Part shown: piece after piece, positions 8,982-52,317 of the stretch
How positions within the stretch are numbered: position 1 is the first letter of the stretch
Layout of the letters: each line of letters starts with the position of its first letter
NCBI GenBank assembly: GCA_023246755.1
Contig: JAHFHU010000001.1
Location: forward strand, 6,072-70,071
DNA: 64,000 nucleotides
Direction of reading: 5' to 3'
Source of the DNA: Candidatus Magasanikiibacteriota bacterium
GTDB taxonomy: Bacteria; Patescibacteriota; Patescibacteriia; Magasanikbacterales; 2-02-FULL-50-9b
Made by a program: the position numbers and the translations under genes
The notes under the pieces: model-generated
The model's database searches: none
Told to the model about the DNA's origin: nothing
What the model saw: the letters and a program-made list of their open reading frames with translations, nothing else

Positions 8982-8982
8982 A

Positions 8983-29992: not shown

Positions 29993-30079
29993 TATAGCAC
30001 GGCGTTGACACGTGGTATATTGTATGCAATGATTGTCGTCTCGGGCACATCAATCAACAGTCCGAACACGGAGAAATCC

Positions 30080-30604
30080 ATGAGCAAGCTCATATTGACG
30101 CTACAATGGTGCGCTACTCCCGGGCACCGGCGCATTCACGCTTCGACAGGTCGTCCGATCGCAGACGCGGTGGTCCGTGAACGACTCGAACTTCACTGCG
30201 AACCGCTCGCGCACGAAAGCCCAAGCGTGATCAAAACCATGGCCGTCGACCTCACCGAATTCACGGATCTGAATGTTCCCGAAGAAACTATTGCGCTGTT
30301 CTGCGACCTCGTGCGCGGAATCGTCGAATGTCTGTTCAACACCAGCGCGCTTCTGCAACATGACCCACCCAAAGTCTGGCACACCAACACACACAACATC
30401 TGGCTCGTATACGGAGATACGCGGATCGAAATTGCACACCCCGCGTACGGACAGAAGTTGTATTGCGCGGCGACTGACGATACGCCAGTACGCTTGCGCT
30501 GCAACAGCTCAGAAGACTACCCGCGGCACTTATGGGCGTTCATTAATAGATACGCCACCGAAGTGAAGGCGATCATGGAATCAGTTGCCAACGCAACGCC
30601 GTAA
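30080..30604 (+). CDS. hypothetical protein (G+C-rich stand-alone cassette)
   Basis: Start at MSKLILTLQW with SD 'GGAG' 7 nt upstream; followed by a strong terminator; visibly G+C-richer than flanks; no recognisable domain. Confidence 0.5.
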   Translation: MSKLILTLQWCATPGHRRIHASTGRPIADAVVRERLELHCEPLAHESPSVIKTMAVDLTEFTDLNVPEETIALFCDLVRGIVECLFNTSALLQHDPPKVWHTNTHNIWLVYGDTRIEIAHPAYGQKLYCAATDDTPVRLRCNSSEDYPRHLWAFINRYATEVKAIMESVANATP

Positions 30605-30837: not shown

Positions 30838-34218
<3,381 letters not shown>

Positions 34219-34276: not shown

Positions 34277-35272
34277 TTAGGTTGGAGATGTGTTGTGTTC
34301 CAAAACAAGACGTACAGCCAAAAATTCAGCTGCATAATCTCGCGACTTTGAGCGGACTATGTAATCATCCGTGTCAAAATAACATATGCCGCACAGACCT
34401 TCTACCTCATCACCCTCCACCGCATAATCATCGAACCACGTACAGAGACCGAGAGCCTTGTTGCCAAAATTTTTTCCTGCTCCAGCAAGGCGTGCATATT
34501 CATCCTGTCGAATCAGGCGAAAGTTGTAGTGGGCAGGGTCGAGACCGAGTTTAGTGATGAGTGCGGTGTGCTTAGGGGTTTTTGTTCTATCAGACGGATC
34601 TCCTGTCCACAACGCCTCATCAATTGCGATGCGAGATATATTTACAACTCCGGTTGCAGATTGACCATCTTTTTGTTTCACATCGAGTGCGGTAAGTAAT
34701 GGTGATGTCGTTTGGTCAAAAGCTTCATCATCTATCGATACTTCTTTCCAGTTCTCAATCCACAAAACAGCAGGTTCATCAAAACGAGGAAGAGACACTT
34801 TTTTGTTATCCTTATCAAGGTTGCTGATGACGTTGCCTTCTGCTAGCCGCCTGTGATAGCCATCATGAACGGTGAAGCGACCATTCTGTGTACCATACTG
34901 CAGGGGAATGTTCGGCGCGGCCTTCTTCCATGCAGCACCAAACTGCTGGATTGCAGCAATTGAGTTCCCTGCATCACGCGTCAAAATATCAAGCTTATTA
35001 AAAATTGGTTGGCCATAGATGCGTGCCAGAACCTTTTGCGCCGCGGGGTTACCTTGCACTTCAACACGTTCTAATCCCAATCGTCGTGCCTCAGTTTCGT
35101 TGATCGAACCAAAATTTTCTTTGCTCGCCGTAGAAACGTCTGAAGGAGCTCGTGAAGAAAAGGCGCCCAGCACTTTCGCGAGCAAGCCAGCAGAAAGCGT
35201 GCGACGTGAGCCAGCTTGATTTATGCCGTTTGTTGAATCGGAAACATTTTCAAAATTTGTAGGTTCTCGCAT
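34277..35272 (-). CDS. hypothetical protein; weak ParB/Srx-like 'DGYHRR' motif
   Basis: 331 aa, no TM; 'RFTVHDGYHRRLAEGN' resembles the ParB-N/sulfiredoxin-fold DGxHR motif. Composition differs from neighbours. Confidence 0.45.
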   Translation of the reverse strand: MREPTNFENVSDSTNGINQAGSRRTLSAGLLAKVLGAFSSRAPSDVSTASKENFGSINETEARRLGLERVEVQGNPAAQKVLARIYGQPIFNKLDILTRDAGNSIAAIQQFGAAWKKAAPNIPLQYGTQNGRFTVHDGYHRRLAEGNVISNLDKDNKKVSLPRFDEPAVLWIENWKEVSIDDEAFDQTTSPLLTALDVKQKDGQSATGVVNISRIAIDEALWTGDPSDRTKTPKHTALITKLGLDPAHYNFRLIRQDEYARLAGAGKNFGNKALGLCTWFDDYAVEGDEVEGLCGICYFDTDDYIVRSKSRDYAAEFLAVRLVLEHNTSPT

Positions 35273-35368: not shown

Positions 35369-36850
35369 TCATTCAAGTATCGTCCAATTCCGCGCGTGCG
35401 CAACTTTTCGCAAAGCTTTTTTTGGACAAACCGCAATCGCATTCCCAACCGATTCAAGCATGGGAATGTCGGTCGATGAATCCGCATACGCATAACTCCG
35501 CGATAAATCAATGTCATGCAAACGCGCATAATGCTCAATCCCCATCGCTTTTTCTTCGCCCTGACAGAGTCGCACATATTCGCCCGTGTAAATCGCACCA
35601 TGTGGCGCATGCGTTTTTTTCAATTCGGTGCAAATCACCCCATGAACAGAAAATCGATCCTCGAGATATCGTTTAAACTGGATGGCGAGCGGATGCGTAA
35701 CTTCCGTAACCAGCACTAACCGATGGTCGCGTTCCGCATGATCTTTCATCATGTGCAGCATGATGTCGTTAAAACGATGCGTCGCAACCGTATCAAAAAA
35801 TTTCTGCGCTGATCGCTCAACTTTTTGCACAGAAAACCCTCGAAAAACTGACAATGCCGCGGTTGCAAATTTTTCGTGCGTCACCAGACCTAATAATTCC
35901 AATGATTCCAGAAAAAAAACATTGCAAAAATATCCAAAACTCACGCGGCCCTCAAAAAATAAAAATTTCACCCAATCAATTTGGGAATAACCTTTGTATA
36001 GCGTCCGATCGATATCAATAAAAACACCGACGTGTTTACGTGGATGTTGAATAAATTCCGGAATATAGCGCGTAGGAAGCAAATTAAAAACTGCGTGTGA
36101 AATTTGTTTTTGATACGCAAGCACCGCAGAGCCATACGTGTAATCTGCCGTAACGGCCGGCGGATGCATGAGCGGCCCCACGCAGAGCCGAACCGTACCC
36201 GGACGCATACGAATTTTATCGATAAAAATTCGTTCATGCCCGACCAGCGCCATTACCGCGATTGGAGCACGCGCGCTGATCGAAACGCGAGCAGCGCCCG
36301 TATGGAGATAATGTAATTGATGGATGCGCTCGAGATGGCCCTCGGGAAAAATTAGAATATTAAACCCGCTTTTGAGTCGCTCAACCATCTTTTCAATTGC
36401 CGCGTGCTTGGTGTAGCCCGAGAAATGGATTGCGTCTTCTTCGTTGCGAAGAATGTCGATGACACCCATTTTTCGAAACACTTTGTTAAATGGATACGCA
36501 AACATATCCGCAGGGCCGGTAACGGGAATCATGTTAGGGCCAAACAATGAAAAAAAGGTGAATCCATCCAAAATTGACGGGTGGTTTGAAATAAAAATTG
36601 TGGGCTCAGTGATCGAAGGTACGTCGCCATCGATTATGATTCGAACGCGTGCAATCGCGAGCATCACCGCATTATGTCGTTTGACCGCGCGACGCCATAT
36701 AATTTCTCGCGCGGCAGGCCGAAGCCATGGTTGGAGCGCAATAATTGTCGTAACCGTCCAATAATTCGCGACGGAATATAAAAAAAAGGCGAGCCGCACA
36801 TAAATTCCATACAGCAGCTGAATTGTTTTGTTACTCCACAATGAACGCAT
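35369..36850 (-). CDS. fusion: 1-acyl-sn-glycerol-3-phosphate acyltransferase (PlsC-like) + HAD-IB (SerB-like) phosphatase domain
   Basis: N-terminal TM helices. Acyltransferase motifs 'FISNHPSILDG' (NHx4D) and 'IFPEGHL'. C-terminal 'VGVFIDIDRTLYKG' (HAD motif I) and 'YAYADSSTDIPMLESVGNAIAV' (HAD-IB motif IV). Confidence 0.75.
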   Translation of the reverse strand: MRSLWSNKTIQLLYGIYVRLAFFLYSVANYWTVTTIIALQPWLRPAAREIIWRRAVKRHNAVMLAIARVRIIIDGDVPSITEPTIFISNHPSILDGFTFFSLFGPNMIPVTGPADMFAYPFNKVFRKMGVIDILRNEEDAIHFSGYTKHAAIEKMVERLKSGFNILIFPEGHLERIHQLHYLHTGAARVSISARAPIAVMALVGHERIFIDKIRMRPGTVRLCVGPLMHPPAVTADYTYGSAVLAYQKQISHAVFNLLPTRYIPEFIQHPRKHVGVFIDIDRTLYKGYSQIDWVKFLFFEGRVSFGYFCNVFFLESLELLGLVTHEKFATAALSVFRGFSVQKVERSAQKFFDTVATHRFNDIMLHMMKDHAERDHRLVLVTEVTHPLAIQFKRYLEDRFSVHGVICTELKKTHAPHGAIYTGEYVRLCQGEEKAMGIEHYARLHDIDLSRSYAYADSSTDIPMLESVGNAIAVCPKKALRKVAHARNWTILE

Positions 36851-36997
36851 AGACTGATCAAGTATAGGCGAAAACGGGTGTTTTGTAAAAAAAATTTAAT
36901 ATCCACAGACTGTCCACCATTGACAAACTTTTTTTATTGTGGAACCCAGTATAGATAGTTCACGAATGTTCCGTGAACTCCTCCAACGGAGCGCCTC

Positions 36998-37360
36998 ATG
37001 CACACATTGTATTATCGGTTTTTACGATGGCTTCTTTTGTGCGGCCGCAAATTTTCAGCCCGCCCGCTTTGGGACGCGGGCTGTGGTCGCAAAAAATTCA
37101 AAACACTCGTTGAGTACTGCCATGCTATTCCCCGCATGCCAGACGATCTGCCAAACGAAAATCCGCGGCGCATGCGCTCATGCTTAGTGCTCGTCGATTA
37201 CCCTGAAAATGAAGGTGGTCCGTATTGGGTTTGGCTTACGCTTGTCTACAGCAAACTCGGATACGGCTTGTGGTATACCCGCACACCACAACACACGTTT
37301 CGCATCCCGCACACCCACGAAATGGACTGTTTGCGTCTCCGCATGCCAATTTTTGGGTAA
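36998..37360 (+). CDS. hypothetical 120-aa protein in G+C-rich island
   Basis: Trp/Arg-rich; no motif; convergent with the cyclase gene and sharing its terminator hairpin. Confidence 0.3.
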   Translation: MHTLYYRFLRWLLLCGRKFSARPLWDAGCGRKKFKTLVEYCHAIPRMPDDLPNENPRRMRSCLVLVDYPENEGGPYWVWLTLVYSKLGYGLWYTRTPQHTFRIPHTHEMDCLRLRMPIFG

Positions 37361-37404
37361 AAAAATACGTAGGCTGCAGCAGACAACTCTGTCTGCAGCC
37401 TACG
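37358..37404. terminator. long hairpin terminator shared by convergent genes
   Basis: 'cgtaggctgcagcagaca-actc-tgtctgcagcctacg' (about 15-bp stem with one 3-nt bulge). On the minus strand it is followed by 'tattttttta', directly after the cyclase gene stop (37422). Confidence 0.65.
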
Positions 37405-37421
37405 TTCCTTGGTTAGAATTC

Positions 37422-39389
37422 TCACCTCACTACACGAAACCCGTGTAGAAGTTCATCCGCTTTTGCTGCCTGTTCTCCTTTGTACACGAGCAACCGCGGG
37501 CGTCGTGCTGTCGTGAGCGTGGTACCGACCGGCAACAATTTCTTCAGGATGTCGAATCGATCCACCCCGGGAATTGCTTTACCCTCGATCACATGGCCAA
37601 ACAGAATTTCAAAAGGCTGACCTTGCAAAACCTGTGCAGCCGCCCATGAAATCAGCACGGATCCCGGTTCAGCTTTTTGTTCATGTCGTTGCGCGTAGTT
37701 CACATTGCAATTCAAGACATCAAGTCGCCCACCCGTTGTTTGAATCACGACGTTTCCACAATGGATACCAATGCGAACCTGAATCCCGTATTTTCCATCC
37801 GGATCAACAGCGTCATTCACGCACTTCTGAAACTCAAGTGCTGCTGAAATTGCCGTATCAACCAGATGTACTTGCACGTCGGGAACGCTCGGATCATCCT
37901 GCTCTTCGAGCGTGGTAAAAAAGTACAAGCCGCCATCGCCCATCGACTTAGGCGTTAACCCCCTGAACTTGAGGCAAAACGTTTGATCAGCAAATTCATG
38001 GAACTTACCGACCAGCGTTGCAACCTCCATGGCCGCGCTCTTTTCGACCTCAAACGGCGATAATGCGGGGTTTTCACCCCGAACTTCTTTCTGCCGCTTA
38101 AGCTCAATCTTAGTGAATGCCATGATGTCCAGAAATACGACGGCCGCGAACTGGAACCGCCGCTCAAATGGCTTTCCCGTGCCATCCGCTGAACGAAGCA
38201 TGCCCCGCAACCACCCCTCGTCCCGAAATCCATGGCCGAGAAGTTCACGGAAACGCAGTGCCATGTAACGCTCGCGTTGTGTCTCGGCTTTCGAGACCGC
38301 AACCGTCGCGCTCAACGCCACCTGACCTTCGACGCGCCGCGTCAAACGATCCCACGCCGTCTGTGCCAAAGTCACGAAGAACGTGGTGGCCGCCAAAATT
38401 AGCGCATGCACGAACTGCAAAATCGTCTTTGACACGTGGTTGTACACGACTTCCATGATAACCGTCCCCAGCTCGTTCGCATCATCGAGCTGAAAAACTG
38501 TTCCTGCATGGACAAGGGGCAACAACTCGCTTGTCCGCGTACAGACACTCGAGATTGTCTTATCGAGCCGGATCGCGTTAACCGTATGTCCGTTCGGCTT
38601 GTAGCGGATTACCGTTCCACACAACTCACCGTTCACGAACAGCCGATCTCCGGCTTGTGGATTCACAACCCACTGGTCATCCTTACTCGCTTCCGCGCCA
38701 CGCAACCAGCGTATAGACTGGTCGTTCCCGAGCCATTTTTTCAAAAAAGCCTCGAGGTTAACCGGAACCGCCTTGAGCGTGACATCGGACACCGGGTCTT
38801 GAAACTCCCAATGTGCTGGAAAAGTCGACGTGACCCCGGGAATAAAATACATGAGCGACAACGCATCATCTTGTGGGGAACGTCGAATGCCGGTCCTCGC
38901 ATCTTCCACATAATGACCGACGAGCGTGATGAGGCCCGGCACACTGCTTTGTGTCCATCGTTTTGAGTCATTCCACAAACGTGTACCCCGTGGAATCGAA
39001 CGCGCACCGAGACGCGGGTCTGTGATGTATTTGAGGCCCAACTTGAGCATCCATTCACCAAAGTCCGTTGACCCGTGCGCGACTTCGACAGCCGCTTGTC
39101 CGAGTGTGCGCAGATGTGACGGGTGCCCGAGCACGGTCACGACCGCGAACTCGATCTGGATGTACCACCCCAAGGGAACAAACCGGTCTGTTGTGAGACT
39201 CAAAGCCCGATTCTCGTCCTTTTCCTGCTCCGCTTGAAGGAGCGCCTGAAGATGTGGGGGGAGTTTCGCGATCACCTGACTGACCGTGCATGACGGAAAA
39301 TACTTGCGCATCCCCCGAACCATGACCGCCCAATTCAGGCTCAAGTTGACGTCGTGCCACGAATCATCATCTTGCAGTTCAGTTGCCAT
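37422..39389 (-). CDS. class III nucleotidyl (adenylyl/guanylyl-type) cyclase domain protein with large N-terminal domain of unknown function
   Basis: 655 aa. C-terminal CHD motifs 'FAAVVFLDIMAFTKI' (D-I-x-x-F-T), 'KSMGDGGLYFF', 'RIGIHCGNVVIQTTGG'. One predicted TM about residue 335. Strong SD 'GGAGG' before the ATG. Gene is visibly G+C-rich (roughly 58-60% by eye) versus flanks. Confidence 0.7.
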   Translation of the reverse strand: MATELQDDDSWHDVNLSLNWAVMVRGMRKYFPSCTVSQVIAKLPPHLQALLQAEQEKDENRALSLTTDRFVPLGWYIQIEFAVVTVLGHPSHLRTLGQAAVEVAHGSTDFGEWMLKLGLKYITDPRLGARSIPRGTRLWNDSKRWTQSSVPGLITLVGHYVEDARTGIRRSPQDDALSLMYFIPGVTSTFPAHWEFQDPVSDVTLKAVPVNLEAFLKKWLGNDQSIRWLRGAEASKDDQWVVNPQAGDRLFVNGELCGTVIRYKPNGHTVNAIRLDKTISSVCTRTSELLPLVHAGTVFQLDDANELGTVIMEVVYNHVSKTILQFVHALILAATTFFVTLAQTAWDRLTRRVEGQVALSATVAVSKAETQRERYMALRFRELLGHGFRDEGWLRGMLRSADGTGKPFERRFQFAAVVFLDIMAFTKIELKRQKEVRGENPALSPFEVEKSAAMEVATLVGKFHEFADQTFCLKFRGLTPKSMGDGGLYFFTTLEEQDDPSVPDVQVHLVDTAISAALEFQKCVNDAVDPDGKYGIQVRIGIHCGNVVIQTTGGRLDVLNCNVNYAQRHEQKAEPGSVLISWAAAQVLQGQPFEILFGHVIEGKAIPGVDRFDILKKLLPVGTTLTTARRPRLLVYKGEQAAKADELLHGFRVVR

Positions 39390-39489
39390 GAGTACCTCCG
39401 TGCCCTTTATACTGCGCCCCGAAATTGAGACGCAAAAGAGCTTGCTACCTTACATAATTTTCTCAAAACTGTCAACTCCATGGCACAGG

Positions 39490-39498
39490 TGGTATACT
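39490..39498 (+). promoter_or_regulatory. extended -10 promoter element (TGgTATACT) upstream of surface-protein gene
   Basis: 'tggtatact' lies 32 nt upstream of ATG 39531. Confidence 0.35.
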
Positions 39499-39530
39499 GA
39501 CACTCGAAATCCGCTTGCCTCTCATTTTTT

Positions 39531-40631
39531 ATGATCCGAATTCGTCAGTCACACTGGTACACGCTCTGTTTATTTTTTTTCCTCTGTTTTCCGTTTTTAT
39601 CGGCTCATGCAGCCAACATCGGATTTGCGTCGAGCGGCGTATCTTTTGCTACAGACACTCCATTCGCAGGAATTCCCACCAAAGTCTACACCGTTGTGAT
39701 CAACAACCAATACAAAAAAATGACCGCGACGATCTCATTCATCGACAATGGCCAAGAATTTGCACGCATAACAACCGTGATTGATTTCGAGGAAGCGCAG
39801 CAAGTGAGCGCGCCGTGGACACCTACAACAGGACCTCACACAGTCGGCGCTCGTTTTATTTCCGCCGTTGCAACGGACGCGCAAGGAAATACGCGCCAAC
39901 TCAAAACAGCCGAATTAGATGCAATTGCATCGCCTGTCTCACAATCAACAACGATCGACAATGATAGCGACCACGACGGAATCGGAGATCATGAAGAAAT
40001 GGGAACCTACCACACATCGCCGCTCAAATTTGATTCTGACGATGACGGGCTGTCGGATTACGAGGAAATTTTTACGTACAAAACGGATCCTAACAACCCA
40101 AATACCGATGGTGACAGCATGAAAGATGGCGCCGAAATACACGCGGGTCGAAATCCTTTAATTTCAGATGATCCCGCACCCCCGCCTCCACCCGTCTCAG
40201 CTCCGACCGCACCATCTGCTTCTTCCAAATCATTAACGACCGTTGCGCCGACTCAAAAAAGTAGCCCGACGGCTCCATCGTCACCCGTTAAAAAAACGAA
40301 CGCGGCGCAGCCGACACTGACAACTACAGAAACTGGATCGAACACAAAAAAGGTTCAAGCAAAAAAACCAGTCGCCGCTCCAAAAATAATTTCTGCGATT
40401 GCCGACCCGCAAACCGCACCGGCCACAGATTCATCAACGACGCCTGAAACCACGACAAACACGACCACCGATTCAATAGCAGCGCCACCTCGTCAACCAC
40501 GCGCAACCCCGCCCGAAGAAAACCAAACGGGCAATTGGGTCACTGTTTTGGGCGTGCTCGCTGGATTATTTGGAGTCACCGCGGCCGTAACCGGCGGCCT
40601 CGCGTGGCGTGAAAAAAATCGATACTATTAA
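39531..40631 (+). CDS. cell-surface protein with thrombospondin-type-3-like Ca-binding repeats, Pro/Thr-rich stalk and C-terminal TM anchor
   Basis: Signal peptide 'LCLFFFLCFPFLSAHA'. Repeats 'DNDSDHDGIGDHEE', 'DSDDDGLSDYEE', 'DTDGDSMKDGAE'. Low-complexity P/T/S/A linker. C-terminal 'WVTVLGVLAGLFGVTAAVTGGLAW'. Confidence 0.65.
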   Translation: MIRIRQSHWYTLCLFFFLCFPFLSAHAANIGFASSGVSFATDTPFAGIPTKVYTVVINNQYKKMTATISFIDNGQEFARITTVIDFEEAQQVSAPWTPTTGPHTVGARFISAVATDAQGNTRQLKTAELDAIASPVSQSTTIDNDSDHDGIGDHEEMGTYHTSPLKFDSDDDGLSDYEEIFTYKTDPNNPNTDGDSMKDGAEIHAGRNPLISDDPAPPPPPVSAPTAPSASSKSLTTVAPTQKSSPTAPSSPVKKTNAAQPTLTTTETGSNTKKVQAKKPVAAPKIISAIADPQTAPATDSSTTPETTTNTTTDSIAAPPRQPRATPPEENQTGNWVTVLGVLAGLFGVTAAVTGGLAWREKNRYY

Positions 40632-40724: not shown

Positions 40725-40922
40725 ATGGCGTCCATCGGAACACAAATCACCGACTATCTCAAGGGGGCGAACGAGGAACTCCGCAAAGTCGTGTGGCCAA
40801 CAAAAGAAGAGACAATTCGCTCAACCATCGCAGTTATCGCAACCAGTTTGATTGTCGCGGCATTTTTCTGGGTACTTGATGCGGTGTTCAATATCGGTTT
40901 GTCGGCAATCATCAAGAAATAA
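40725..40922 (+). CDS. secE: preprotein translocase subunit SecE
   Basis: 65 aa, one TM; 'KVVWPTKEETIRSTIAVIATSLIVAAFFWVLD'; immediately precedes nusG. Confidence 0.85.
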   Translation: MASIGTQITDYLKGANEELRKVVWPTKEETIRSTIAVIATSLIVAAFFWVLDAVFNIGLSAIIKK

Positions 40923-40923
40923 T

Positions 40924-41469
40924 ATGCCAAAACAAACACTTGATCTCGGTCGTCGCTGGTATGTGATCCACACATACTCCGGGTACGAAGACAATGTGGC
41001 GCGTAACCTCAAACACCGCGTCGAAACCATGTCGATACAAGACAAAATTTTTGGTGTGCTTGTTCCAACCGAGAAAAAAATTAAAATTAAAAATGGCAAA
41101 CGCCACACCGTGATTGAAAAAATTTTTCCGGGCTATGTGTTCGTTGAAATGCTCGTGACAGATGATTCGTGGTACGTGGTGCGCAACACGCCAAACGTTA
41201 CTGGTTTTGTTGGCAGCGGAACGACCCCAACGCCCATTGCGGAAACTGAAATGAAGGCGTTGCAAAAACGAATGGGCGTCGAAGAACCAAAATATCAAAT
41301 CGATGTTATCGAAGGATCGGCGGTTAAAATCGTCGACGGACCATTTAAAAACATGGAAGGCAAAGTCGATCATATCGACGAAGCCCGCGGTAAGATCAAA
41401 GTTCTCGTTAACATGTTCGGACGCGAAACGCCGGTCGAACTTGACTTTTTACAGATTAAGAAAGTATAA
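40924..41469 (+). CDS. nusG: transcription termination/antitermination factor NusG
   Basis: Start [22 protein letters not shown]; KOW region '[16 protein letters not shown]'. Confidence 0.9.
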
Positions 41470-41480
41470 TCCTCGGCACT

Positions 41481-41903
41481 ATGGCAAAAAAGATCAAAAC
41501 CATCATCAAACTACAGATTCCGGGCGGAGGAGCAACCCCAGCCCCACCTGTTGGCCCAGCCCTTGGTCAGCACGGTTTGAATATTCAAGAATTCGTAACC
41601 AAATTCAACGCAGCGACCCAAGATCGCCGTGGCGAAACTGCTCCGTGTGAAATCACGGTCTTCGAAGACCGCACCTTCACTTTTGTGCTCAAAACTCCGC
41701 CAGCAACCGATTTGATCAAAAAAGCTGCGGGTATCAAGAGCGGATCAAAGAAAGCCCCGGGCGAAAAAGTGGGTAAAATCACGTGGGCACAAGCTCGCGA
41801 CATCGCAACCCGCAAAATGCCGGACTTAAACACCGCGAATGTAGACGCAGGCGCTCGGATGATCGCCGGATCAGCTCGCCAGATGGGTGTTGACGTAATC
41901 TAA
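41481..41903 (+). CDS. rplK: 50S ribosomal protein L11
   Basis: '[31 protein letters not shown]'. Confidence 0.95.
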
Positions 41904-41918
41904 AAATTGCGCTCTCGG

Positions 41919-41946
41919 AACTCCCCCACTCGGGGGAGTTTTGTTA
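41919..41946 (+). terminator. Rho-independent terminator after rplK
   Basis: 'aactccccc-actc-gggggagtt' followed by 'ttgtt'. Confidence 0.6.
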
Positions 41947-41958
41947 TAATAGAAACCT

Positions 41959-42294
41959 ATGCAGACAAAAAATATTATTCGCAACGTTTATCTCTATCTC
42001 GTGAGTGCGATCGCGTTGTTCATGGTCGTGTTCGCGGTCGTGAGCTTAGTCAACCTGGGGCTGCGTACGTGGATTTTTCCAAAGGCTGATGATAACTACT
42101 ATTCCCAACCGAGCAAACCTGTTGCGGAAATGGCCGCACAGATTGAACAAGATCGTCAAAATGCCGAAAATAATAAATTAGCGCAGCGTCAACGCGATCT
42201 CGTACAAAATATCTCGTTTCTCATTGTCGCGGGTCCACTGTTTGCGTTTCACTGGCGCTTAATTCGAAAAGATCACCTAATAAATAACGCATAA
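41959..42294 (+). CDS. small membrane protein (2 TM), hypothetical
   Basis: Two hydrophobic helices flanking a Q/R-rich loop. Confidence 0.5.
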   Translation: MQTKNIIRNVYLYLVSAIALFMVVFAVVSLVNLGLRTWIFPKADDNYYSQPSKPVAEMAAQIEQDRQNAENNKLAQRQRDLVQNISFLIVAGPLFAFHWRLIRKDHLINNA

Positions 42295-42298
42295 TTTT

Positions 42299-42865
42299 AT
42301 GATGCTCATTATTCTCATCGCCATCGTCGCAATTCTCGCACTGTGGCTCATCGGCACCTACAACGGACTTGTCACGCTCCGCACACGATCCGAAGAAGCA
42401 TGGTCAGACATCGACGTACAATCAAAACGCCGCTACGATTTGATTCCGAATTTAGTCGAAACCGTAAAAGGATATGCGGCGCATGAATCCGGAACACTGG
42501 AAAAAGTGATCGCCGCGCGTAATGCTGCGATGCAAACACACGATTCGTCGAGTGCAAGCATGCAAGATAAATTACAAGCGGAAAACGCACTTTCCGGAAC
42601 GCTCAAAACTATTTTTGCATTGAGTGAAAGCTATCCCGATCTCAAAGCAAACCAAAATTTCATGAAACTCCAAGACGAACTTGCGGACACTGAAAATAAA
42701 ATTCAGGCTTCACGCAGATTCTACAACGGAAATGTGCGCGACCTCAACACAAAAATTCAGCACTTCCCTACAAACCTCATTGCGAATACTTTTGGTTTCA
42801 CCAAACGAGAATTTTTTGAAGTTGCAGACGCAGCGCAGCGCGAAAATGTGAGTGTAAAATTTTAA
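42299..42865 (+). CDS. LemA-family membrane protein
   Basis: 'LIGTYNGLVTLRTRSEEAWSDIDVQSKRRYDLIPNLVETVKGY'. Confidence 0.85.
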   Translation: MMLIILIAIVAILALWLIGTYNGLVTLRTRSEEAWSDIDVQSKRRYDLIPNLVETVKGYAAHESGTLEKVIAARNAAMQTHDSSSASMQDKLQAENALSGTLKTIFALSESYPDLKANQNFMKLQDELADTENKIQASRRFYNGNVRDLNTKIQHFPTNLIANTFGFTKREFFEVADAAQRENVSVKF

Positions 42866-42871
42866 TGTCCT

Positions 42872-43774
42872 GTGTATACTCAAATCGACGCAAATAAACG
42901 GCGAACAACTGTTCTCATAACCATTTTTATCGCGCTGATCGTCGCGATGGGTTATGCGTACAGTCTCTACTCGGGAATCGATCCGTTCGTTGCGATGACG
43001 GCTGCGTTGATTTTTTCAACGGTGATGGCGCTTTTTAGTTATTACACAGGCGACAAAATCGCTCTCGCGACCGCAGGCGCGCAAGAGATCACCAAAAAAA
43101 CCAACCTGTATCTTTACAACATCGTTGAAAATTTATGCATCACCGCCGGCATGAAACCAACGCCGCGTGTTTACATCATCGATGATCCGGCGATCAACGC
43201 ATTTGCGACGGGTCGCGACCCCGAACATGCATCAATCGCCGTCACCACCGGCGCATTATCAAAATTAGAAAACGAAGAACTTGAGGGGGTGCTCGCACAC
43301 GAACTCTCACACATTAAAAATTACGACATCCGTCTGATGACGATTGTGATCGTTTTGTGTGGTGCAATCATGCTCATCACACACATGCTTCAATTTGGTG
43401 GTGCGGGCCGCTCACGATCGAATGACGATGAAAAAAGCGGTCTTGGCAGCGTCCTCGCAATTCTTGGAATTGTCGTGATCATCCTCTCGCCGATCATCGC
43501 CGAACTCATCAAGCTCGCAATTTCTCGTCGTCGCGAATTTTTAGCGGATGCCTCTGGCGCGCTCCTCACCCGCTATCCCGAAGGCCTTGCACGCGCCCTT
43601 GAAAAAATTCGCGACACGAATCAACCGATGTCAAGCGCAAATCAAGCAACCGCGCATCTGTACCTCGACAATCCATTTCGTGCTGCGGGTTCAAAAATTT
43701 CAAATCTTTTTTCAACACATCCACCGCTCGACGAGCGCATCAAAGCGTTGCGCAACATGGGTCAAGCAAAATAA
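42872..43774 (+). CDS. htpX: M48-family zinc metalloprotease (HtpX-like)
   Basis: HExxH 'HELSHIKNYD', TM helices; classic LemA-M48 gene pair. Confidence 0.85.
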   Translation: MYTQIDANKRRTTVLITIFIALIVAMGYAYSLYSGIDPFVAMTAALIFSTVMALFSYYTGDKIALATAGAQEITKKTNLYLYNIVENLCITAGMKPTPRVYIIDDPAINAFATGRDPEHASIAVTTGALSKLENEELEGVLAHELSHIKNYDIRLMTIVIVLCGAIMLITHMLQFGGAGRSRSNDDEKSGLGSVLAILGIVVIILSPIIAELIKLAISRRREFLADASGALLTRYPEGLARALEKIRDTNQPMSSANQATAHLYLDNPFRAAGSKISNLFSTHPPLDERIKALRNMGQAK

Positions 43775-45999: not shown

Positions 46000-48900
46000 T
46001 TACGAACCGACCTCATCTTTTTTCTTGAGTTCAGCAACGTCCTCGTTCACACGATCAACTACATTTTGGCGATCTGCGTCATTAGGCAACTTTAACGCGC
46101 GGACCTCTGTTCGAGCGGCCACGTCCGGAGAAAGCCCTTCAAGAAGTTTTTTTATTCGACGCTCAACGCCAATCTGCGTTCTGTCGCGAGCACCCTTCAT
46201 GATATCTGATTTAAGAAAGGCATCATCATAGGCTACGTGAAGTAATTTTCCATCCTTTTTCGGCATTGCTTGAATATGAGACGCTAACCTACCAATTAAA
46301 TTCGCTTTACCGATGGTAAATCCGTCAAACGCCGCTTCTGAAGAGGTGAGATTAAACCGCACACTGCTCGGATTATCTTGCCATCGCCCGATCGATTCCT
46401 CTGGTTTTTCAGTCGCCGATATTTCAGCCGCGACATCTGTCACAGGAGCAACAGGCGCCGCCTTTGGACCTAATTCGATTACCGCCGCGCTGATGTCATC
46501 TGGTTTGCTTCGGAAGGATTTTTCTTTGCTCCGTGCCGCGGCCTCCTCAACAAGTGCTCGAGCCGGATCAGCGCTATTATCGATAACCGTTTCAATAATC
46601 TCAAAATCAGTTAAATTGTCGCCAACGCCATCGGTCATGAGCAAGAGACGGGAAACACCCGCAGGTAATTCGATAATTCGGATATTTGGCGCAAAATTAT
46701 TACCCGAACGCCCACTCTTACCACTTCCAATACCCAAATAACTCCCAATCACATTACGTACGCCCCATGCATCTTCCACCTCCTCAGAAAGGAGATCGCC
46801 CGAAGATGACGCGGTTCGCATACGCTGTTCAATCGCCCACTTCGCTGAAATTTCACTTGCAGGTGTTGTGCGAGTAATCAAATCTGACGTGAGTGGTGTT
46901 AATCTGTTTTTGTCATCGAGCACATACACGCGCGAGTCACCGACAGCCGCAACTGCTGCATACGCCTTATTATTCTCCATAAACGGAATTGCGATCGCCG
47001 CCGTTGTTCCGCCCTGTGGTAAGCCCGCATTTCTCAAATTATCAACAACTTCAGCCTGAACATCAGCGAACGCCTGATCAAGCGCAGCAGAAAGCTCCTT
47101 GGCTGACCCGCCGCGCGCAACAACATCGCGCAGACCGGCTGCTCGTTTCTGAAATGCCTCTGCTGCAAATGTCGACGCCTCTTTACCACCGGCGTACCCA
47201 CCCATACCATCAAACATGCCATAAACTTCATTCGCGCGATCAATGAACTGACTATCTTCGTTCTTACCCTTTCCTTTTGTCGAATCAGTATGTTCAAATA
47301 CTTGGCGCACCAAAATTTCACCCTCACCCGGCCCTCTCGTTTCAACCAAATCCGGAACAATTGGTTTAATTTCAGGCTTTAATTTTGTTTGTGCGTCCGG
47401 CGCAGCGCGCTCCGCAGCAAGTGCCGCCTCTCTCGCCGACACTGCCGCACGACGCTGACGTGCAATCTCTCCTTCACCCGGAACGCGGTACATCGATTCG
47501 CGCAATTCGTTGGTTATCGCATCAACATTCGTACCCCCAACAATAACGCGATACATCACCCGTTCGCCGGTTTCCCGCGCAACGTGTTGGATCAGTTTTT
47601 CAATATTTTTTGTGAAAAACGCTACCGCATCGTCGGTTGTTTTGATTTCTGCGCGACCCTCAACTTTTTTGCCAATCATTCTCTGAACATAACTCTCATC
47701 AAGCACATACACAACTGGCTCTTGCGTTCCTGTCTGGGTTCCTGCAGCTAATCGTGCAACTTCCATCTGCTTAAATTGATTTCCATCAAATTCACCAACG
47801 CCAACTAACTGTTGACGAACAGGTAGCGCTTCAATCCGTTCTCCACGAAGTGCTAGCACTTGATACTCTTTTTCCGGCGGTGCATCGGGTGGAGTCACCA
47901 CAACGCCGTTGCGCAAACTTTTTTCAGATACGAATTTAACAGCAACTCCATACGCCGCAAACTTTTTCGTGAATTCTGGGCCGAACACTTGAGCCACCAG
48001 CTGTTCCGTTGTCTGATGTTTTGCAAGTGACGCAGCGCTCACCGCAATCATTAACAGTTCCGGACGTGGCTTTGCAACCGCAAGACGTTGTTCAAATTCA
48101 TCAATCGAGTGAACGCCGCCATGAACACCCTCAAAAGAAAAGCCGCCATCTTGTGCACCCTGCCCAGATTCTGCGATATTGAAAACAAATCCGTCACCCC
48201 ATTTGAGCGGCTCACGAATTTCTCGAGCGCGCGCTTCCGTCAATTTTTCACGAATTATCTCCGGATCATTGGACGACAGTGGATTATCTTTGTTGCTTGC
48301 CACATACGAATCAACTGCCCCATCCATCCATTTTTTGAACTGCGCGTCTTCCACATATTGACGCCCTGTCTGCTCATGTTTCCCACTCAAAACCGTATCA
48401 AAATCAGCGCTTTCAACTAATTTACGGCTCAACTCCTCTTGCGCCTTAAACATTTCTGGCGTTAAGGGGCCACGAGGCGTGCGCTCACCTTTTTGTTTGC
48501 TCTGTTCATCAAGTTTTGGAACTTCCATCGGATCACGCGGCGTCCACGGAATCGGAAAAATAAACGGAATGTCATCACTACCACTCGTTGGAGCTGACGG
48601 AATCGTCGCCGGGGTCTCTTGCCAATCATAAAAGTCTTGCGTCACATCCTTATTCGAGTGCATCAAACGGAACAAACTCGATCTGTGCGCGACAACGCCC
48701 GCGCCGTCGCCATGACGTGTAGCGGTAGCGAGTGTGTGATAGCCCGCGCCGTCGTCAGACGGAATAACTGCTTCAACCGTTGCTTTCAAATCTCCGTGAT
48801 CATCAAACAACACGTTGTACAGCTCGTCACCCGGCTTGATATTGAGCACGCCATCCGGGCCAACCGGCAACTCAAAACTTTCGCCCGAATGCCAATAATT

Positions 48901-51900
48901 TTGACCGACGAACACACGCAACCGAAATTTCGATGCGGCCTCCGCAAACGCTTTGCTCTCAACTTTGTTACTAATGTCACCAAATTTATTATCGATCGAG
49001 CCGTCAGAATTCACTTTGCCCCCAATTGCATTTTTGATCATTTCCTTGATCGACAATGTTCGCGCGCTCGACGTGCCATCGAGTTTCAACTGCAATTCTT
49101 TGCCGTCAGCACCGACCCAACGCCCACCAACATGCTCAACCTTAAAATGTGGATCAGCTTCGTATTGATGGAGATATTTTGGATCAGGCCACGAATCAAC
49201 TTTAAACGAGTGCGGCCCCAGCGTATTTGGACCCTTTGGCATCGGAAGATCACCGGTTTTGTCCGTCACCACCCAATGTGCACCAACTTTGTGCATCGGA
49301 GTTCCGTTGCTGTGCCAATCGAGGCGATGTGCTTTCGATTGACCCATGTGTTCGCGCAAAAACTTCGTGAGCCCATCTCTCGTGTACGACGTCTTATCGA
49401 TGTGGACTTCCTCACGCAACATCCAACCGTGCTGTCGCAACAATGCTGCAGAAGCTGGCAACAATTTTCCATCCGGACCGACTTGAATTCCGCCTTCAAT
49501 CAACCTACCTGTTTTATCGGTAATATCAAATGTTCCGTCAACGTTTGGCTTAATATCCATGTTGTCCGGAATCTCAAAATTATTGGTCACCGCATGATTT
49601 CCAAACTCAACAGGTCGCAAAGTCCCTGAAAATTGATGCCCGGGGACATTTTGGGTTACATGTTCGATGTGACCGCCCCACTCGCTCATCGCATCTGCTT
49701 CTAATACTTTTCCATCCGGAGTCATGTGAAAAAGCGGGCTCACCGGCTTGCCAAAAAGCGTACAAATCCGCCCGCCACCATGTCCGTCAGAAACAAAGAT
49801 TCGGTCGCTTGGCAATCGAAGTATCCCTTTTTCAAACGGAACTTCATGAACACCACGCGGCGCATCCATAAACGAAAACAGTCCACCATGAACAGCAGCA
49901 GGTGCCGCCGGTGGCATCTCTGGCCCACCAAAATTAAATCCGAGCAACCGTTTTGTTGCGGACCATGTGTTACTTGCCCCGTTCAGAACGTAATTACCCG
50001 CAGCTTCTAACTGGTCATGAAACACATGACGCGCTCCCCACATCAACGCACCTGATGCCAAACCAATACTGCCCCCAATAAGTGCCTTGCGATTACTATT
50101 TTTGCTTAAATATTCAGCAAATGCGGTATCGCGCGCCGCAATATCATCAAGAATTTTTTGTTTTTCCGCATCAACTCGGCCCGCAAGCGATGGGTCTTTC
50201 ATCAAATTTGATTCACGGCCCAGTCGCTGAAACTGTCGTTTAATATCATCGATCGCATTCGCGAGCGATAAATCGCGCTCACCCTCTTCGGCGCTCACAT
50301 TAATCGTATCTTTTGCATGCTGCAAACGAACTTCGAGACGCGCATGTGTTTCCGCGATGAGCGTGAGTGCTGCCGCGCGCGCTTCTGGATTTGTTTCTTG
50401 ACCTGTGATCGCACGCAACTGTTCCAAAATTGTATCCGCATTTTTCATCTCTTGAACAAACTCGGACATTTTCTCCGCACGCGGACCACCCGGCGTTCGA
50501 CCAAGTGCGCGATCTCGCGCGACCATGCCACGATCTTGTTTCAACTCTTTGCTTGCACGAATTTTCGCAAACAACCCCGCAGCCAACGTTCCACCAACCA
50601 AACCCGCCGCAATTACCGCTGCAGGACCGCTCAAAACACCCGCACCCGCGATACCCATTGCCGCTGCACCCGTTGCTGCCCATCGAACGCCCGCGCGCGC
50701 TGCGATCGCACCAACAATACCCATCGTCACCGGATTTGCAACGACCGCACCGAGCACTTTGTTAACCGCCGTCGAACCCGTCATGTTTTGCAACCACGAA
50801 ACCGCGCGCTCGCCTCGGCTCATTTTTCCGGCTGGATCGCGCTCAACAACATCGCGCCCCCGTTTTGATAATTCAATATTCAAATCCAACTTGAGCATGC
50901 CTTTCACATAGCGCTTGATCGACTCCGGATCTTTCTCGCCATATTTTTCCTGCGCGGCCGTGATCATGTGGCTTACCTGCTCTTTATACGTCTCGGCCCA
51001 ATGAAACAAATTTGACGCATGCATTCGATTCTCTCGCTCGCTTGCCGTCGACCGACCGCCTTGCGCAAATTTTTTACCACCCATGAGCGGAATGATCTCT
51101 TCTTCAACACGTTTTTCAAATGCCGTTCGATCGCCGATGCCGCCGGTCGCATATTCAACAAACAACGCGCTCGCCGCATTGTTCAACGTTTCATCCGCGA
51201 CAAATTGATCGCCACGTTCTTCTTCATCATGAAGGTCGTCAGCAAAATGTCGGAGCACATCGTCAAATTGTGCGAGTGTCTCACGCGTGTGCGGGTCCGT
51301 CGACTCAACAGCACCACGACCAAACACGCGCGCTTCGAGCGACGCTTTCAAATTACGATTCGATTCAATCGCGTGGAGTGCATCGAGATAAAATTTCCGG
51401 CGATACGCATCTTCATTAATATGCGCAAACGCTTTTGAAAAAATTGCACCAACGCCTTTTCGATTCATGTACGCGCGCAACTTATTTTCCGCAACTAATT
51501 CCGCGAGCTGCTCGATCCACGCCGACAAATCAACGATACGAATATCCATTTTTTGCGGTTTGTTTTCGTAAATGCCCCCATGCATTTTCAATAAGTGCCG
51601 CAAACGCATCGTGCGCTCTTCTTCGGGCGTGATCGTATCCGCTTTATAACGCGAAGCTGGTTCGTTAACCCGAGGCGTTTCATCAATCGGCTGTGTGTTC
51701 ACCATGATCGGTTCAGGGCTGTTTTCGTTGGATGTGTTTTGTTGGACAGCTGCTGCTGCGGCTTCGGCAGCAGCCGCTTCCTGAGCTGCCTGCCGCGCGG
51801 CGAATGTTGCTAGTAAATCCGCGCGCGCCTGATCAGTATCTTTTTGGTCATTACCAGCTAATGGTTGCTCAGCTCGATCAGTCTTTTTAATTTTCTTCGG

Positions 51901-52317
51901 TTCGACAACTGGTTGTGGGTATCCATCCGGTCGCTTAATAAGATTGTGTTTCGGCTTCCGTGCACATCGTGTGAATGCGTCGAGATCAAGCTCTTTCGAC
52001 GCGAAAAAATCGACCCCGTTTGGAGCGGCTGTCGCGACAAGAATTTTTGGTTTTCCCCCGTCATCCGTTACACCAACGATACGCACGCCCTGATGCCACG
52101 ATCTATTTGAATAGAGATCGATCGCATCAAACAAGTTGAACGACATTTTTGCAAGAATTTCTTTGCCAGAATCCGTTACCTTCCCCTCAAGTTCACGCAT
52201 TTTATCCGCCGAAAATTTTGGAACAGGCATGAGATCGAGCGGCTTTCGATCTTGGTTTACAGGATCTGGTCGTTCTTGTGTTTTTGGTCTTCGATCTCCG
52301 TTTTTTGGTTCTCGCAT
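46000..52317 (-). CDS. giant (2105 aa) membrane-anchored multidomain protein with C-terminal PP2C-type Ser/Thr phosphatase domain
   Basis: Uninterrupted 6.3-kb ORF. About 4 TM helices (residues ~545-640 Gly/Ala-rich and ~765-785). C-terminal PPM motifs 'YGMFDGMGGYAGG', 'AAVGDSRVYVL', 'LLLMTDGVGDNL'. The remaining ~1700 aa have no recognisable domains. Confidence 0.8.
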   Translation of the reverse strand: MREPKNGDRRPKTQERPDPVNQDRKPLDLMPVPKFSADKMRELEGKVTDSGKEILAKMSFNLFDAIDLYSNRSWHQGVRIVGVTDDGGKPKILVATAAPNGVDFFASKELDLDAFTRCARKPKHNLIKRPDGYPQPVVEPKKIKKTDRAEQPLAGNDQKDTDQARADLLATFAARQAAQEAAAAEAAAAAVQQNTSNENSPEPIMVNTQPIDETPRVNEPASRYKADTITPEEERTMRLRHLLKMHGGIYENKPQKMDIRIVDLSAWIEQLAELVAENKLRAYMNRKGVGAIFSKAFAHINEDAYRRKFYLDALHAIESNRNLKASLEARVFGRGAVESTDPHTRETLAQFDDVLRHFADDLHDEEERGDQFVADETLNNAASALFVEYATGGIGDRTAFEKRVEEEIIPLMGGKKFAQGGRSTASERENRMHASNLFHWAETYKEQVSHMITAAQEKYGEKDPESIKRYVKGMLKLDLNIELSKRGRDVVERDPAGKMSRGERAVSWLQNMTGSTAVNKVLGAVVANPVTMGIVGAIAARAGVRWAATGAAAMGIAGAGVLSGPAAVIAAGLVGGTLAAGLFAKIRASKELKQDRGMVARDRALGRTPGGPRAEKMSEFVQEMKNADTILEQLRAITGQETNPEARAAALTLIAETHARLEVRLQHAKDTINVSAEEGERDLSLANAIDDIKRQFQRLGRESNLMKDPSLAGRVDAEKQKILDDIAARDTAFAEYLSKNSNRKALIGGSIGLASGALMWGARHVFHDQLEAAGNYVLNGASNTWSATKRLLGFNFGGPEMPPAAPAAVHGGLFSFMDAPRGVHEVPFEKGILRLPSDRIFVSDGHGGGRICTLFGKPVSPLFHMTPDGKVLEADAMSEWGGHIEHVTQNVPGHQFSGTLRPVEFGNHAVTNNFEIPDNMDIKPNVDGTFDITDKTGRLIEGGIQVGPDGKLLPASAALLRQHGWMLREEVHIDKTSYTRDGLTKFLREHMGQSKAHRLDWHSNGTPMHKVGAHWVVTDKTGDLPMPKGPNTLGPHSFKVDSWPDPKYLHQYEADPHFKVEHVGGRWVGADGKELQLKLDGTSSARTLSIKEMIKNAIGGKVNSDGSIDNKFGDISNKVESKAFAEAASKFRLRVFVGQNYWHSGESFELPVGPDGVLNIKPGDELYNVLFDDHGDLKATVEAVIPSDDGAGYHTLATATRHGDGAGVVAHRSSLFRLMHSNKDVTQDFYDWQETPATIPSAPTSGSDDIPFIFPIPWTPRDPMEVPKLDEQSKQKGERTPRGPLTPEMFKAQEELSRKLVESADFDTVLSGKHEQTGRQYVEDAQFKKWMDGAVDSYVASNKDNPLSSNDPEIIREKLTEARAREIREPLKWGDGFVFNIAESGQGAQDGGFSFEGVHGGVHSIDEFEQRLAVAKPRPELLMIAVSAASLAKHQTTEQLVAQVFGPEFTKKFAAYGVAVKFVSEKSLRNGVVVTPPDAPPEKEYQVLALRGERIEALPVRQQLVGVGEFDGNQFKQMEVARLAAGTQTGTQEPVVYVLDESYVQRMIGKKVEGRAEIKTTDDAVAFFTKNIEKLIQHVARETGERVMYRVIVGGTNVDAITNELRESMYRVPGEGEIARQRRAAVSAREAALAAERAAPDAQTKLKPEIKPIVPDLVETRGPGEGEILVRQVFEHTDSTKGKGKNEDSQFIDRANEVYGMFDGMGGYAGGKEASTFAAEAFQKRAAGLRDVVARGGSAKELSAALDQAFADVQAEVVDNLRNAGLPQGGTTAAIAIPFMENNKAYAAVAAVGDSRVYVLDDKNRLTPLTSDLITRTTPASEISAKWAIEQRMRTASSSGDLLSEEVEDAWGVRNVIGSYLGIGSGKSGRSGNNFAPNIRIIELPAGVSRLLLMTDGVGDNLTDFEIIETVIDNSADPARALVEEAAARSKEKSFRSKPDDISAAVIELGPKAAPVAPVTDVAAEISATEKPEESIGRWQDNPSSVRFNLTSSEAAFDGFTIGKANLIGRLASHIQAMPKKDGKLLHVAYDDAFLKSDIMKGARDRTQIGVERRIKKLLEGLSPDVAARTEVRALKLPNDADRQNVVDRVNEDVAELKKKDEVGS

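Follow-up and report, generated by a model that had tools for sequence, protein, structure and literature searches.

The mycobacterial class IIIc cyclases Rv1264 and Rv1900c (LipJ) combine an N-terminal regulatory domain with a class III catalytic domain at the C-terminus, in which two aspartates bind metal, a Lys/Asp pair the substrate and an Asn/Arg pair the transition state. There are precedents for lipid control in mycobacteria, in that Rv2212 is regulated by fatty acids and the regulatory domain of Rv1264 contains bound oleate. A different arrangement is found in the beta1 subunit of soluble guanylate cyclase (sGC), which consists of H-NOX, PAS, coiled-coil and cyclase regions. Structures of the H-NOX, V4R and TRAPPC3 types have been described as one fold, with cavities for hydrophobic ligands and a precedent for the binding of palmitate (2024 structural paper, PMC10933270), while the Pycsar systems combine a cyclase with a receptor bearing a transmembrane or TIR domain (PMC11224242). 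Here we analyse a gene encoding a class III cyclase in a stretch of 64 kb (64,000 nt) of contig JAHFHU010000001.1 from a Candidatus Magasanikiibacteriota bacterium, referred to as the window, to which all coordinates refer unless another locus is named. We consider it likely that this gene encodes a cytoplasmic sensor adenylate cyclase engaged in ordinary second-messenger signalling, with a sensor that forms a new family of known fold.

The gene is complete and lies on the minus strand at 37422..39389 (stop included), encoding a protein of 655 amino acids according to the list of open reading frames (ORFs) and a match to Pfam Guanylate_cyc (PF00211). This match covers amino acids 411–595 (37605..38159, minus strand) and scores 47 bits against a gathering cut-off of 21.9, and the region contains the motifs FLDIMAF (from amino acid 419), KSMGDGG (481) and RIGIHCG (539), which bears out the canonical class III cyclase domain reported in the first-pass annotation of this DNA. 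With that bit score and an insert of 35 amino acids near the C-terminus, the domain is a divergent representative of its class. The protein has the full set of six canonical class III residues, whose roles we take from the motif spacing known for the family rather than from structural superposition: D421 (in FLDIMAF) and D485 (in KSMGDGG) would bind metal, K481 (also in KSMGDGG) and D557 substrate, and N564 and R568 would stabilise the transition state, the last three lying in LDVLNCNVNYAQRHE. R539 is also present, giving seven residues in canonical spacing. Among members of the protein family described below that have the domain, D421 is kept in 31/31, D485 in 30/30, R539 in 30/30 and R568 in 27/30. 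A check of the substrate-specificity residues, as proposed with the first-pass annotation, returned a Lys/Asp pair of the type that is typical of ATP use, from which cyclic AMP (cAMP) is the predicted product. The best matches of the catalytic domain among PDB sequences are the cyclase domain of Rv1900c (1YBT, E = 9e-6) and 3MR7, and the domain resembles the bacterial IIIc type more than the IIIa type. The likeness to Rv1264 and Rv1900c thus extends to the catalytic residues and to the possession of an N-terminal regulatory domain, but the N-terminal domain itself differs, being absent from Pfam and NCBIfam and having a predicted fold like that of H-NOX and V4R proteins.

Amino acids 1–410 have no match in Pfam, NCBIfam, PADLOC or in PDB sequence and profile searches, and a word-indexed search of 5.8 billion clusters with the full protein returned only the protein itself. 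When 1.84 billion representatives were scanned exhaustively by HMMER with this region as query, 35 proteins were found at E ≤ 1e-3, two of which (P0017 and P0040) are beta-propeller or Ig-repeat proteins and were treated as false positives. Most of the relatives are 550–680 amino acids long and align from end to end, and a cyclase domain detectable by Pfam is present in 20 of 33 family members. The sole member with a taxonomic name, P0021, is from Candidatus Kerfeldbacteria (Patescibacteria/Parcubacteria groups; Candidate Phyla Radiation, CPR), a lineage in which, to our knowledge, almost nothing is known about sensing; the family provides a concrete way to study the second-messenger signalling of an uncultivated lineage by experiment. 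A scan of a genome collection with the query alone gave no relative and with a four-sequence alignment (A5) a single locus, L011, while scans of metagenomes and viruses gave just weak matches to the catalytic domain, with no relative of the N-terminal domain on viral contigs. The nearest cyclase relative, P0007 (L005, 2654-4315), was called at 553 amino acids and is cut short; an upstream ORF in another frame (L005, 2151-2555) matches amino acids 21–91 of the query, which suggests a frameshift or assembly error, and P0041, a protein of 708 amino acids in the same 90%-identity cluster but from another assembly, is long enough to be the full-length version.

Three parts can be distinguished in the N-terminal region. 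The sensor core (approximately amino acids 10–225; 38715..39362, minus strand), delimited by its predicted H-NOX/V4R/TRAPPC3-type fold, contains the conserved motifs LGHPxHL (H89), WNxNK (N142 and K143) and DxxSLLxxI(R/P)G (D175, S178 and G185), together with P125 and Y160. It is followed by a beta-rich sub-domain (approximately amino acids 226–318; 38436..38714, minus strand), recognised from secondary structure, the model confidence score pLDDT and conservation, in which C283 (mostly), LPL at 290–292 and G296 are conserved and a lineage-specific insert at 231–246 is of low confidence; structure searches gave no convincing match for amino acids 226–318. The remainder is a helical linker (amino acids 319–410; 38160..38435, minus strand), seen as long helices in a low-confidence single-sequence model and varying in length in the family alignment.

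The first-pass annotation found no recognisable fold ahead of the catalytic domain, a view that does not hold once the family is used for structure prediction. A single-sequence AlphaFold2 model of the whole protein had a pLDDT of 37, whereas a model of the N-terminal domain built from a 22-sequence alignment reached a pLDDT of 85.6 and a pTM of 0.85, and the first 318 amino acids, which fold confidently with the family alignment, match H-NOX and V4R structures. The highest structural-match scores were to YslB (9.8) and Nostoc H-NOX (9.8, 165/189 residues aligned), followed by the sensor domain of M. tuberculosis VirS (9.5), Shewanella H-NOX (9.4), BcsD (8.4), Caldanaerobacter H-NOX (8.2), the V4R protein MJ1460 (8.1), TRAPPC3 and TRAPPC5 (7.4–8.2), the H-NOX domain of sGC beta1 (7.7) and the sensory domains of PoxR and DmpR (7.2–7.6), so that V4R-type proteins score on a par with H-NOX proteins. 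As modelled, the domain would have both the three-dimensional fold of H-NOX and the two-layer alpha/beta fold with internal cavity of V4R and TRAPPC3. It differs from the V4R, TRAPPC3 (Bet3) and YslB proteins and from the sensory domains of DmpR, PoxR and VirS in lacking a Pfam V4R match, in being longer, because its N-terminus has a helical part similar to the one in H-NOX, and in being fused to a cyclase, where the domains of that group are joined to a sigma-54 activator, to an AraC DNA-binding domain or to nothing; we identified no counterpart in the query of the Cys-rich zinc site that PoxR and Thor-TRAPPC3 have. A sensor fused to a cyclase is a familiar design, but the sensor domain here, with its predicted H-NOX/V4R fold, belongs to a sequence family that has not been described before, and we found no description, in the literature searched, of this fold joined directly to a bacterial class III cyclase.

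We propose the following mechanism. The N-terminal domain of approximately 225 amino acids would bind a small hydrophobic ligand in its cavity, and occupancy would be relayed through the beta-rich sub-domain and the long helical linker to the catalytic domain, which probably works as a dimer and would convert ATP to cAMP, assuming that the specificity for ATP predicted from the residues holds in vivo. The cAMP would be read by cyclic nucleotide monophosphate (cNMP)-binding proteins encoded elsewhere or, in the relative at locus L014/L015, directly downstream. The first-pass annotation had raised a signalling sensor as one option, and this agrees with the ATP-type residues, with the ligand-cavity fold of the sensor and with the one homologue that is followed by cNMP-binding proteins. 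As to the ligand, our tentative preference over heme is a lipid or acyl compound whose head group is acidic, because a gene for an acyltransferase-phosphatase fusion neighbours the cyclase (a patatin-like lipase in one case) and because no canonical heme-ligating histidine can be placed; fatty-acid regulation of mycobacterial cyclases and the binding of palmitate within the fold argue in the same direction. The placement in the cytoplasm follows from the distribution of a hydrophobic helix at amino acids 323–341 (38367..38423, minus strand; Kyte-Doolittle mean at its peak 1.98). As the first-pass annotation noted, this is the sole hydrophobic segment of the protein, but of the 16 rows inspected in the family alignment only three, the query and its nearest relatives P0007 and P0008, have this insertion. 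Since the remaining rows have no hydrophobic segment there, the N-terminal domain is most simply cytoplasmic, and the helix is more likely to serve in membrane association or at a dimer interface than to cross the membrane.

A possible lipid connection is suggested by the genes around the cyclase homologues. We compared 11 distinct cyclase loci, including the window and counting L006/L007, L014/L015 and L019/L020 once each; L016–L018 were excluded as matches to the catalytic domain only. In the window, a PlsC-type acyltransferase fused to a HAD-IB phosphatase (493 amino acids, assigned by Pfam and NCBIfam) is encoded on the minus strand at 35369..36850, and an orthologue of this acyltransferase-HAD gene is adjacent to the cyclase or within 2.3 kb of it in 8/11 loci. 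It lies head-to-head with the cyclase in L008, L010, L012, L013 and L019/L020, the full-length copies being 36–39% identical to that of the window and those of L008 and L010 being partial at contig ends. The head-to-head neighbour in L011 is an acyltransferase-only version, and in L014/L015 the gene (33% identical) is 2.3 kb downstream of the cyclase. The three loci without it (L005, L006/L007 and L009) are all on short contigs, and in L007 a patatin-like lipase lies downstream of the cyclase instead. Contigs with the neighbour range from approximately 40 to 53% G+C and their cyclases are only 21–28% identical to that of the window by BLAST. The acyltransferase-HAD fusion and the cyclase family are of similar rarity, the fusion having 37 clusters at ≥33% identity and near full length (beyond these, identity falls to 27–28% and matches are partial) compared to approximately 33, and the recurrent link points to a candidate lipid input. 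Other genes flanking the homologues encode DnaE, TsaD, PheT, thymidylate synthase, DHFR, FtsH, Fur and a metal ABC transporter.

Locus L014/L015 is of additional interest, as a cNMP_binding protein is encoded 20 nt after the cyclase, followed by a similar protein of 157 amino acids and then by a second cNMP_binding protein. None of these proteins shows an evident membrane-spanning segment or matches a TIR domain, and their PADLOC matches to PycTIR/TIR-effector models are weak (16.6–21.6 bits) and lie within or beside the cNMP-binding region. A search of homologue neighbourhoods for cNMP-binding effectors, as suggested with the first-pass annotation, therefore found cNMP-binding proteins at one locus but a TIR or transmembrane effector at none.

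A number of observations weigh against the interpretation as an ATP-specific sensor cyclase with a lipid-linked role. K481 is kept in only 20/30 and N564 in 16/30 of the family members with the domain, and the position of D557 is Asp in 11 and Glu in 14; some of the members with another residue at K481 or N564 (a third to half of the family, depending on the position) may use other substrates or be of low activity. The fold assignment rests on a single AlphaFold2 model from 22 sequences, and none of 22 family members matches Pfam HNOB (PF07700) or V4R even at E ≤ 10, while hhalign against an H-NOX profile of two sequences verified against the PDB gave a probability of 0.2. Structure prediction for the first 400 residues, which the first-pass annotation had recommended, has thus yielded an H-NOX/V4R fold but no assignment at the sequence level. 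The identity of the ligand is a guess. In the window itself the acyltransferase-HAD gene is co-directional with the cyclase, with a terminator and a small gene in between, unlike in most relatives, and the closest relative of the acyltransferase-HAD gene (54% identical, L021) is on a 3.3-kb contig with no cyclase. Neighbour-joining trees of the cyclase and acyltransferase-HAD proteins are not congruent, although both are star-like and therefore say little on this point, and the recurrent neighbourhood could equally be the frozen gene order of one lineage. Finally, no cNMP-binding protein was found in the window, tested solely by BLAST with the L014 proteins.

Of the alternatives to a resident sensor adenylate cyclase, the one that survives best, although we think it unlikely, is that the cyclase gene, whatever its function, arrived by horizontal transfer or by a recent replacement of the allele, forming a G+C-rich islet of one gene. 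The gene has 54.0% G+C and 59.5% G+C at third codon positions (GC3), compared to means of 48.2% and 47.4% over the 45 long ORFs analysed in the window, or 5.8 and approximately 12 points higher (z approximately 2.2 for both, and rank 2/45 for G+C). Local rearrangement could be read in the same way: gene order around the cyclase differs from that in most relatives, and L021 runs from a TSP3-like gene through a homologue of the small ORF next to the cyclase to the acyltransferase-HAD gene with no cyclase between. However, the synonymous-codon distance of the gene is average (rank 24/45), and the native housekeeping gene for threonyl-tRNA synthetase (ThrRS) is nearly as G+C-rich (52.9%, GC3 57.2%). 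There are no tRNA genes in the window, the annotation of the window includes no integrase or other mobility gene, and no meaningful direct or inverted repeats surround the cyclase gene; inversion via flanking repeats, considered as a source of the local gene order, was likewise unsupported by the repeat search. The family is limited to approximately 33 clusters, among which no G+C-rich donor lineage is visible, and the neighbourhood recurs in very divergent members (21–28% identity). The gene is thus richer in G+C than its surroundings, as the first-pass annotation noted, but the difference is moderate, and in this window the description as a conspicuous G+C-rich island goes too far.

The raised G+C noted in the first-pass annotation proves to be a trait of the family, and it is much more marked in some of the homologues. 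In L019/L020, two independent assemblies, the GC3 of the cyclase (8001-9800) is 0.82 compared to 0.44 ± 0.07 for 14 neighbouring genes, and the values for cyclase and neighbours are 0.79 and 0.53 in L013 (2486-4186), 0.72 and 0.39 in L012 (2027-4018), 0.60 and 0.47 in the window and 0.47 and 0.35 in L010. The cyclase of L011 (0.47) can be set against its acyltransferase neighbour (0.35) or the mean of nine neighbours (0.44), and those of L008 (0.61, acyltransferase gene alone compared, 0.62) and L009 (0.67, one neighbour compared, 0.68) do not stand out. The rise is even along the whole cyclase gene. In L014/L015 it is not the cyclase that is raised, its GC3 being at the background of 0.24, but the three adjacent genes of cNMP-binding type (L014, 7802-9887), with values of 0.59–0.86, a pattern that is reproduced in independent assemblies. 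Such extreme single-gene spikes at a recurrent position would be expected to favour allele replacement and are not explained by the standard reasoning about foreign islands. However, the genomes with the three strongest cyclase spikes have acyltransferase-HAD genes that are more closely related to one another than to any others, and an inherited, maintained bias therefore fits better than separate transfers. Candidate causes are selection involving rare codons, G+C-biased conversion or repeated allele replacement from G+C-rich relatives. The case for horizontal acquisition made in the first-pass annotation is accordingly a weak one, with a mild shift in composition and a recurrent neighbourhood to be balanced against the local rearrangement and the spikes in the family. 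A more ambitious version of the sensor cyclase interpretation, which we regard as speculative and likewise unlikely, would treat the protein as a prokaryotic, independently assembled analogue of sGC, in which an H-NOX/V4R domain that responds to a lipid or to a carboxylate ligand resembling porphyrin drives a cAMP cyclase wired to acyltransferase-HAD lipid remodelling in lipid-scavenging CPR bacteria, while an unusual process (recurrent allele replacement, G+C-biased conversion or rare-codon selection) lifts cNMP genes alone to a GC3 of 0.7–0.85 in genomes at 0.24–0.53.

The likeness to sGC raises a second alternative, namely that the protein is a heme-based gas sensor and the prokaryotic counterpart of sGC, with nitric oxide, O2 or CO driving the cyclase through the linker. 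Full-length human sGC beta1 is the top Foldseek match, albeit a weak one (E = 4e-3), the order of sensor, middle domain, long helix and class III cyclase mimics that of sGC beta1, as does the length, and H89 and Y160 are near-invariant with an Arg common near position 169. We consider this reading improbable; the failure of HNOB and H-NOX profiles to recognise the family counts against it, as do details of the presumed heme site. As we read the predicted helices, H89, the only conserved histidine, lies in a turn between helices 73–87 and 91–97, far upstream of the helix expected to bear the proximal histidine, which in the predicted secondary structure is itself only approximately five residues long, and no His, Cys or Met is conserved in amino acids 125–143, the region that would correspond to helix F. 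Y160, at the end of the second strand of the model, may be equivalent to the Tyr of YxSxR, but the Y-x-S-x-R motif is not present as such, so that neither the proximal histidine nor this motif of sGC beta1 can be placed in the query. The middle region consists of short beta strands rather than a PAS-like domain (no match to PAS, HNOBA in sGC), and the substrate residues are K481 and D557 (ATP), in place of the Glu/Cys of guanylate cyclases (GTP). The resemblance to the design of sGC is most simply explained as an independent, convergent fusion, and bears in this respect on the possible origin of the architecture of the animal nitric-oxide receptor.

The last alternative, a Pycsar- or Pucsar-type anti-phage module with the small protein or another neighbour as effector, was entertained in the first-pass annotation as a defence system with an unrecognised partner and is highly improbable: the class III cyclase fold, a weak PADLOC match to PycC (E = 6.5e-6, 23.5 bits, amino acids 474–579 only), the mildly raised G+C and an adjoining small gene of narrow distribution are outweighed by a generic Pfam cyclase model that scores twice as high as PycC, by the presence of a 410-amino-acid N-terminal sensor region, by ATP-type residues, by the lack of a receptor or effector gene (neither the acyltransferase-HAD protein nor the TSP3 and 331-amino-acid proteins described below have a cNMP-binding domain, and the L014 proteins are without evident membrane span or TIR match) and by a housekeeping context that recurs in distant relatives, with no N-domain relatives found in the scan of viral contigs. 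The ATP-type residues alone do not exclude a role in defence, because a recent preprint abstract reports purine (cyclic GMP) cyclases in Pycsar-related systems.

The small gene had been described as an ORFan convergent with the cyclase, and while the orientation is correct, with the ORF at 36998..37360 on the plus strand facing the cyclase gene, the gene is not an orphan. It encodes 120 amino acids and is preceded by GGAG at 36988..36991, 6 nt before its ATG. Its codon-usage score of 0.044 was ambiguous by itself, since only 5% of true genes score below 0.068 and 95% of spurious ORFs score below -0.07, but L021 carries a homologue that is 48% identical over all 120 amino acids (E = 3e-37), which rules out a spurious ORF. 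The alignment supports the start at 36998 and not the 74-amino-acid version with the NCBI source tag, and identities between the two copies at codon positions 1, 2 and 3 of 0.59, 0.69 and 0.36 indicate purifying selection on the protein. There was no match to Pfam, NCBIfam, PADLOC, PHROGs or PDB, hence none to a cNMP-binding or TIR domain, nor any evident hydrophobic segment, and no homologue was found in any other cyclase locus. We also considered whether the small ORF might be a decayed cNMP-binding gene, but blastx of the spacer against proteins of L012–L015, including the cNMP-binding proteins of L014/L015, gave nothing convincing. The homologue in L021, the only one found, directly precedes the acyltransferase-HAD gene in the same orientation, on the contig that has no cyclase. 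Given this position and its absence from other cyclase loci, the small gene is not a partner of the cyclase; it is a real gene of narrow distribution, linked to the acyltransferase-HAD gene. Two misreadings of the locus are corrected here, as the cyclase is very unlikely to form part of a Pycsar-like module and the supposed ORFan is a real, conserved gene with a different partner.

Upstream of the small gene, a conserved non-coding block of the form TCCACAG..TTGACA..TGGAACC (36895..36950, plus strand) aligns with positions ~620..675 of L021. It contains an inverted TCCAC/GTGGA pair around the TTGACA box and lies in the divergent intergenic region common to the 120-amino-acid gene and the acyltransferase-HAD gene. 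It is probably a promoter or operator of the former, and could possibly be shared with the latter.

Expression signals of the cyclase gene itself are clear. The strong Shine-Dalgarno sequence noted in the first-pass annotation was confirmed in the sequence itself as GGAGG at 39395..39399 (minus strand), 5 nt ahead of the ATG at 39387..39389. Between the cyclase and the small gene is an intrinsic-terminator hairpin at 37367..37405 (either strand; inverted repeat I7), with perfect arms of 13 nt at 37367-37379 and 37393-37405, or 17 bp if one bulge is allowed, and an RNAfold free energy of -31.7 kcal/mol (z = -6.0 compared to shuffled sequences). On the minus strand the stem runs into a U-tract (complement of 37357..37366), so that the hairpin is above all the terminator of the cyclase, although it may also terminate the transcript of the small ORF, for which the plus-strand tail is weak. 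The near-perfect 15-bp hairpin that the two genes were said to share thus exists between them. Identical copies of the cyclase gene, or copies differing by one single-nucleotide polymorphism, occur on four further metagenome contigs, with the same flanking genes as far as these short contigs extend.

Among the immediate neighbours, a protein of 331 amino acids with no family match is encoded next to the acyltransferase-HAD gene (34277..35272, minus strand), and the gene divergent from the cyclase (39531..40631, plus strand) codes for a surface protein rich in Pro and Thr, with TSP3 repeats and a hydrophobic anchor at its C-terminus; TSP3-like relatives are also found flanking loci L006 and L021. 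Most of the recognisable genes of the window are housekeeping genes, including those for GyrB, SecE, NusG, L11, LemA, HtpX, ThrRS, FtsW, a release factor, UvrD, ThyX, iPGM, GatB, TGT and GAPDH. No Rfam family was detected in the 64 kb at its gathering threshold, nor was a ribosomal-protein leader. The gyrB gene (30838..34206, minus strand) is split by an intein of approximately 400 amino acids (Pfam Intein_splicing, amino acids 461–871), for which the Pfam annotation reports no homing-endonuclease domain. On the plus strand at 40725..43774, secE-nusG-rplK are followed by genes for a DUF5671 membrane protein, LemA and HtpX, so that rplA (L1) does not follow the L11 gene. The highest GC3 of the window (0.64) is that of a 199-amino-acid ORF at 30005..30604 (plus strand), which has no Pfam match and is possibly spurious. 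A protein of 2105 amino acids, encoded on the minus strand at 46000..52317, has as its sole recognised domain a PP2C phosphatase (approximately amino acids 1685–1905), and the 511-amino-acid ThyX (55525..57060, plus strand) contains two Thy1 stretches and is thus a tandem-domain flavin-dependent thymidylate synthase.

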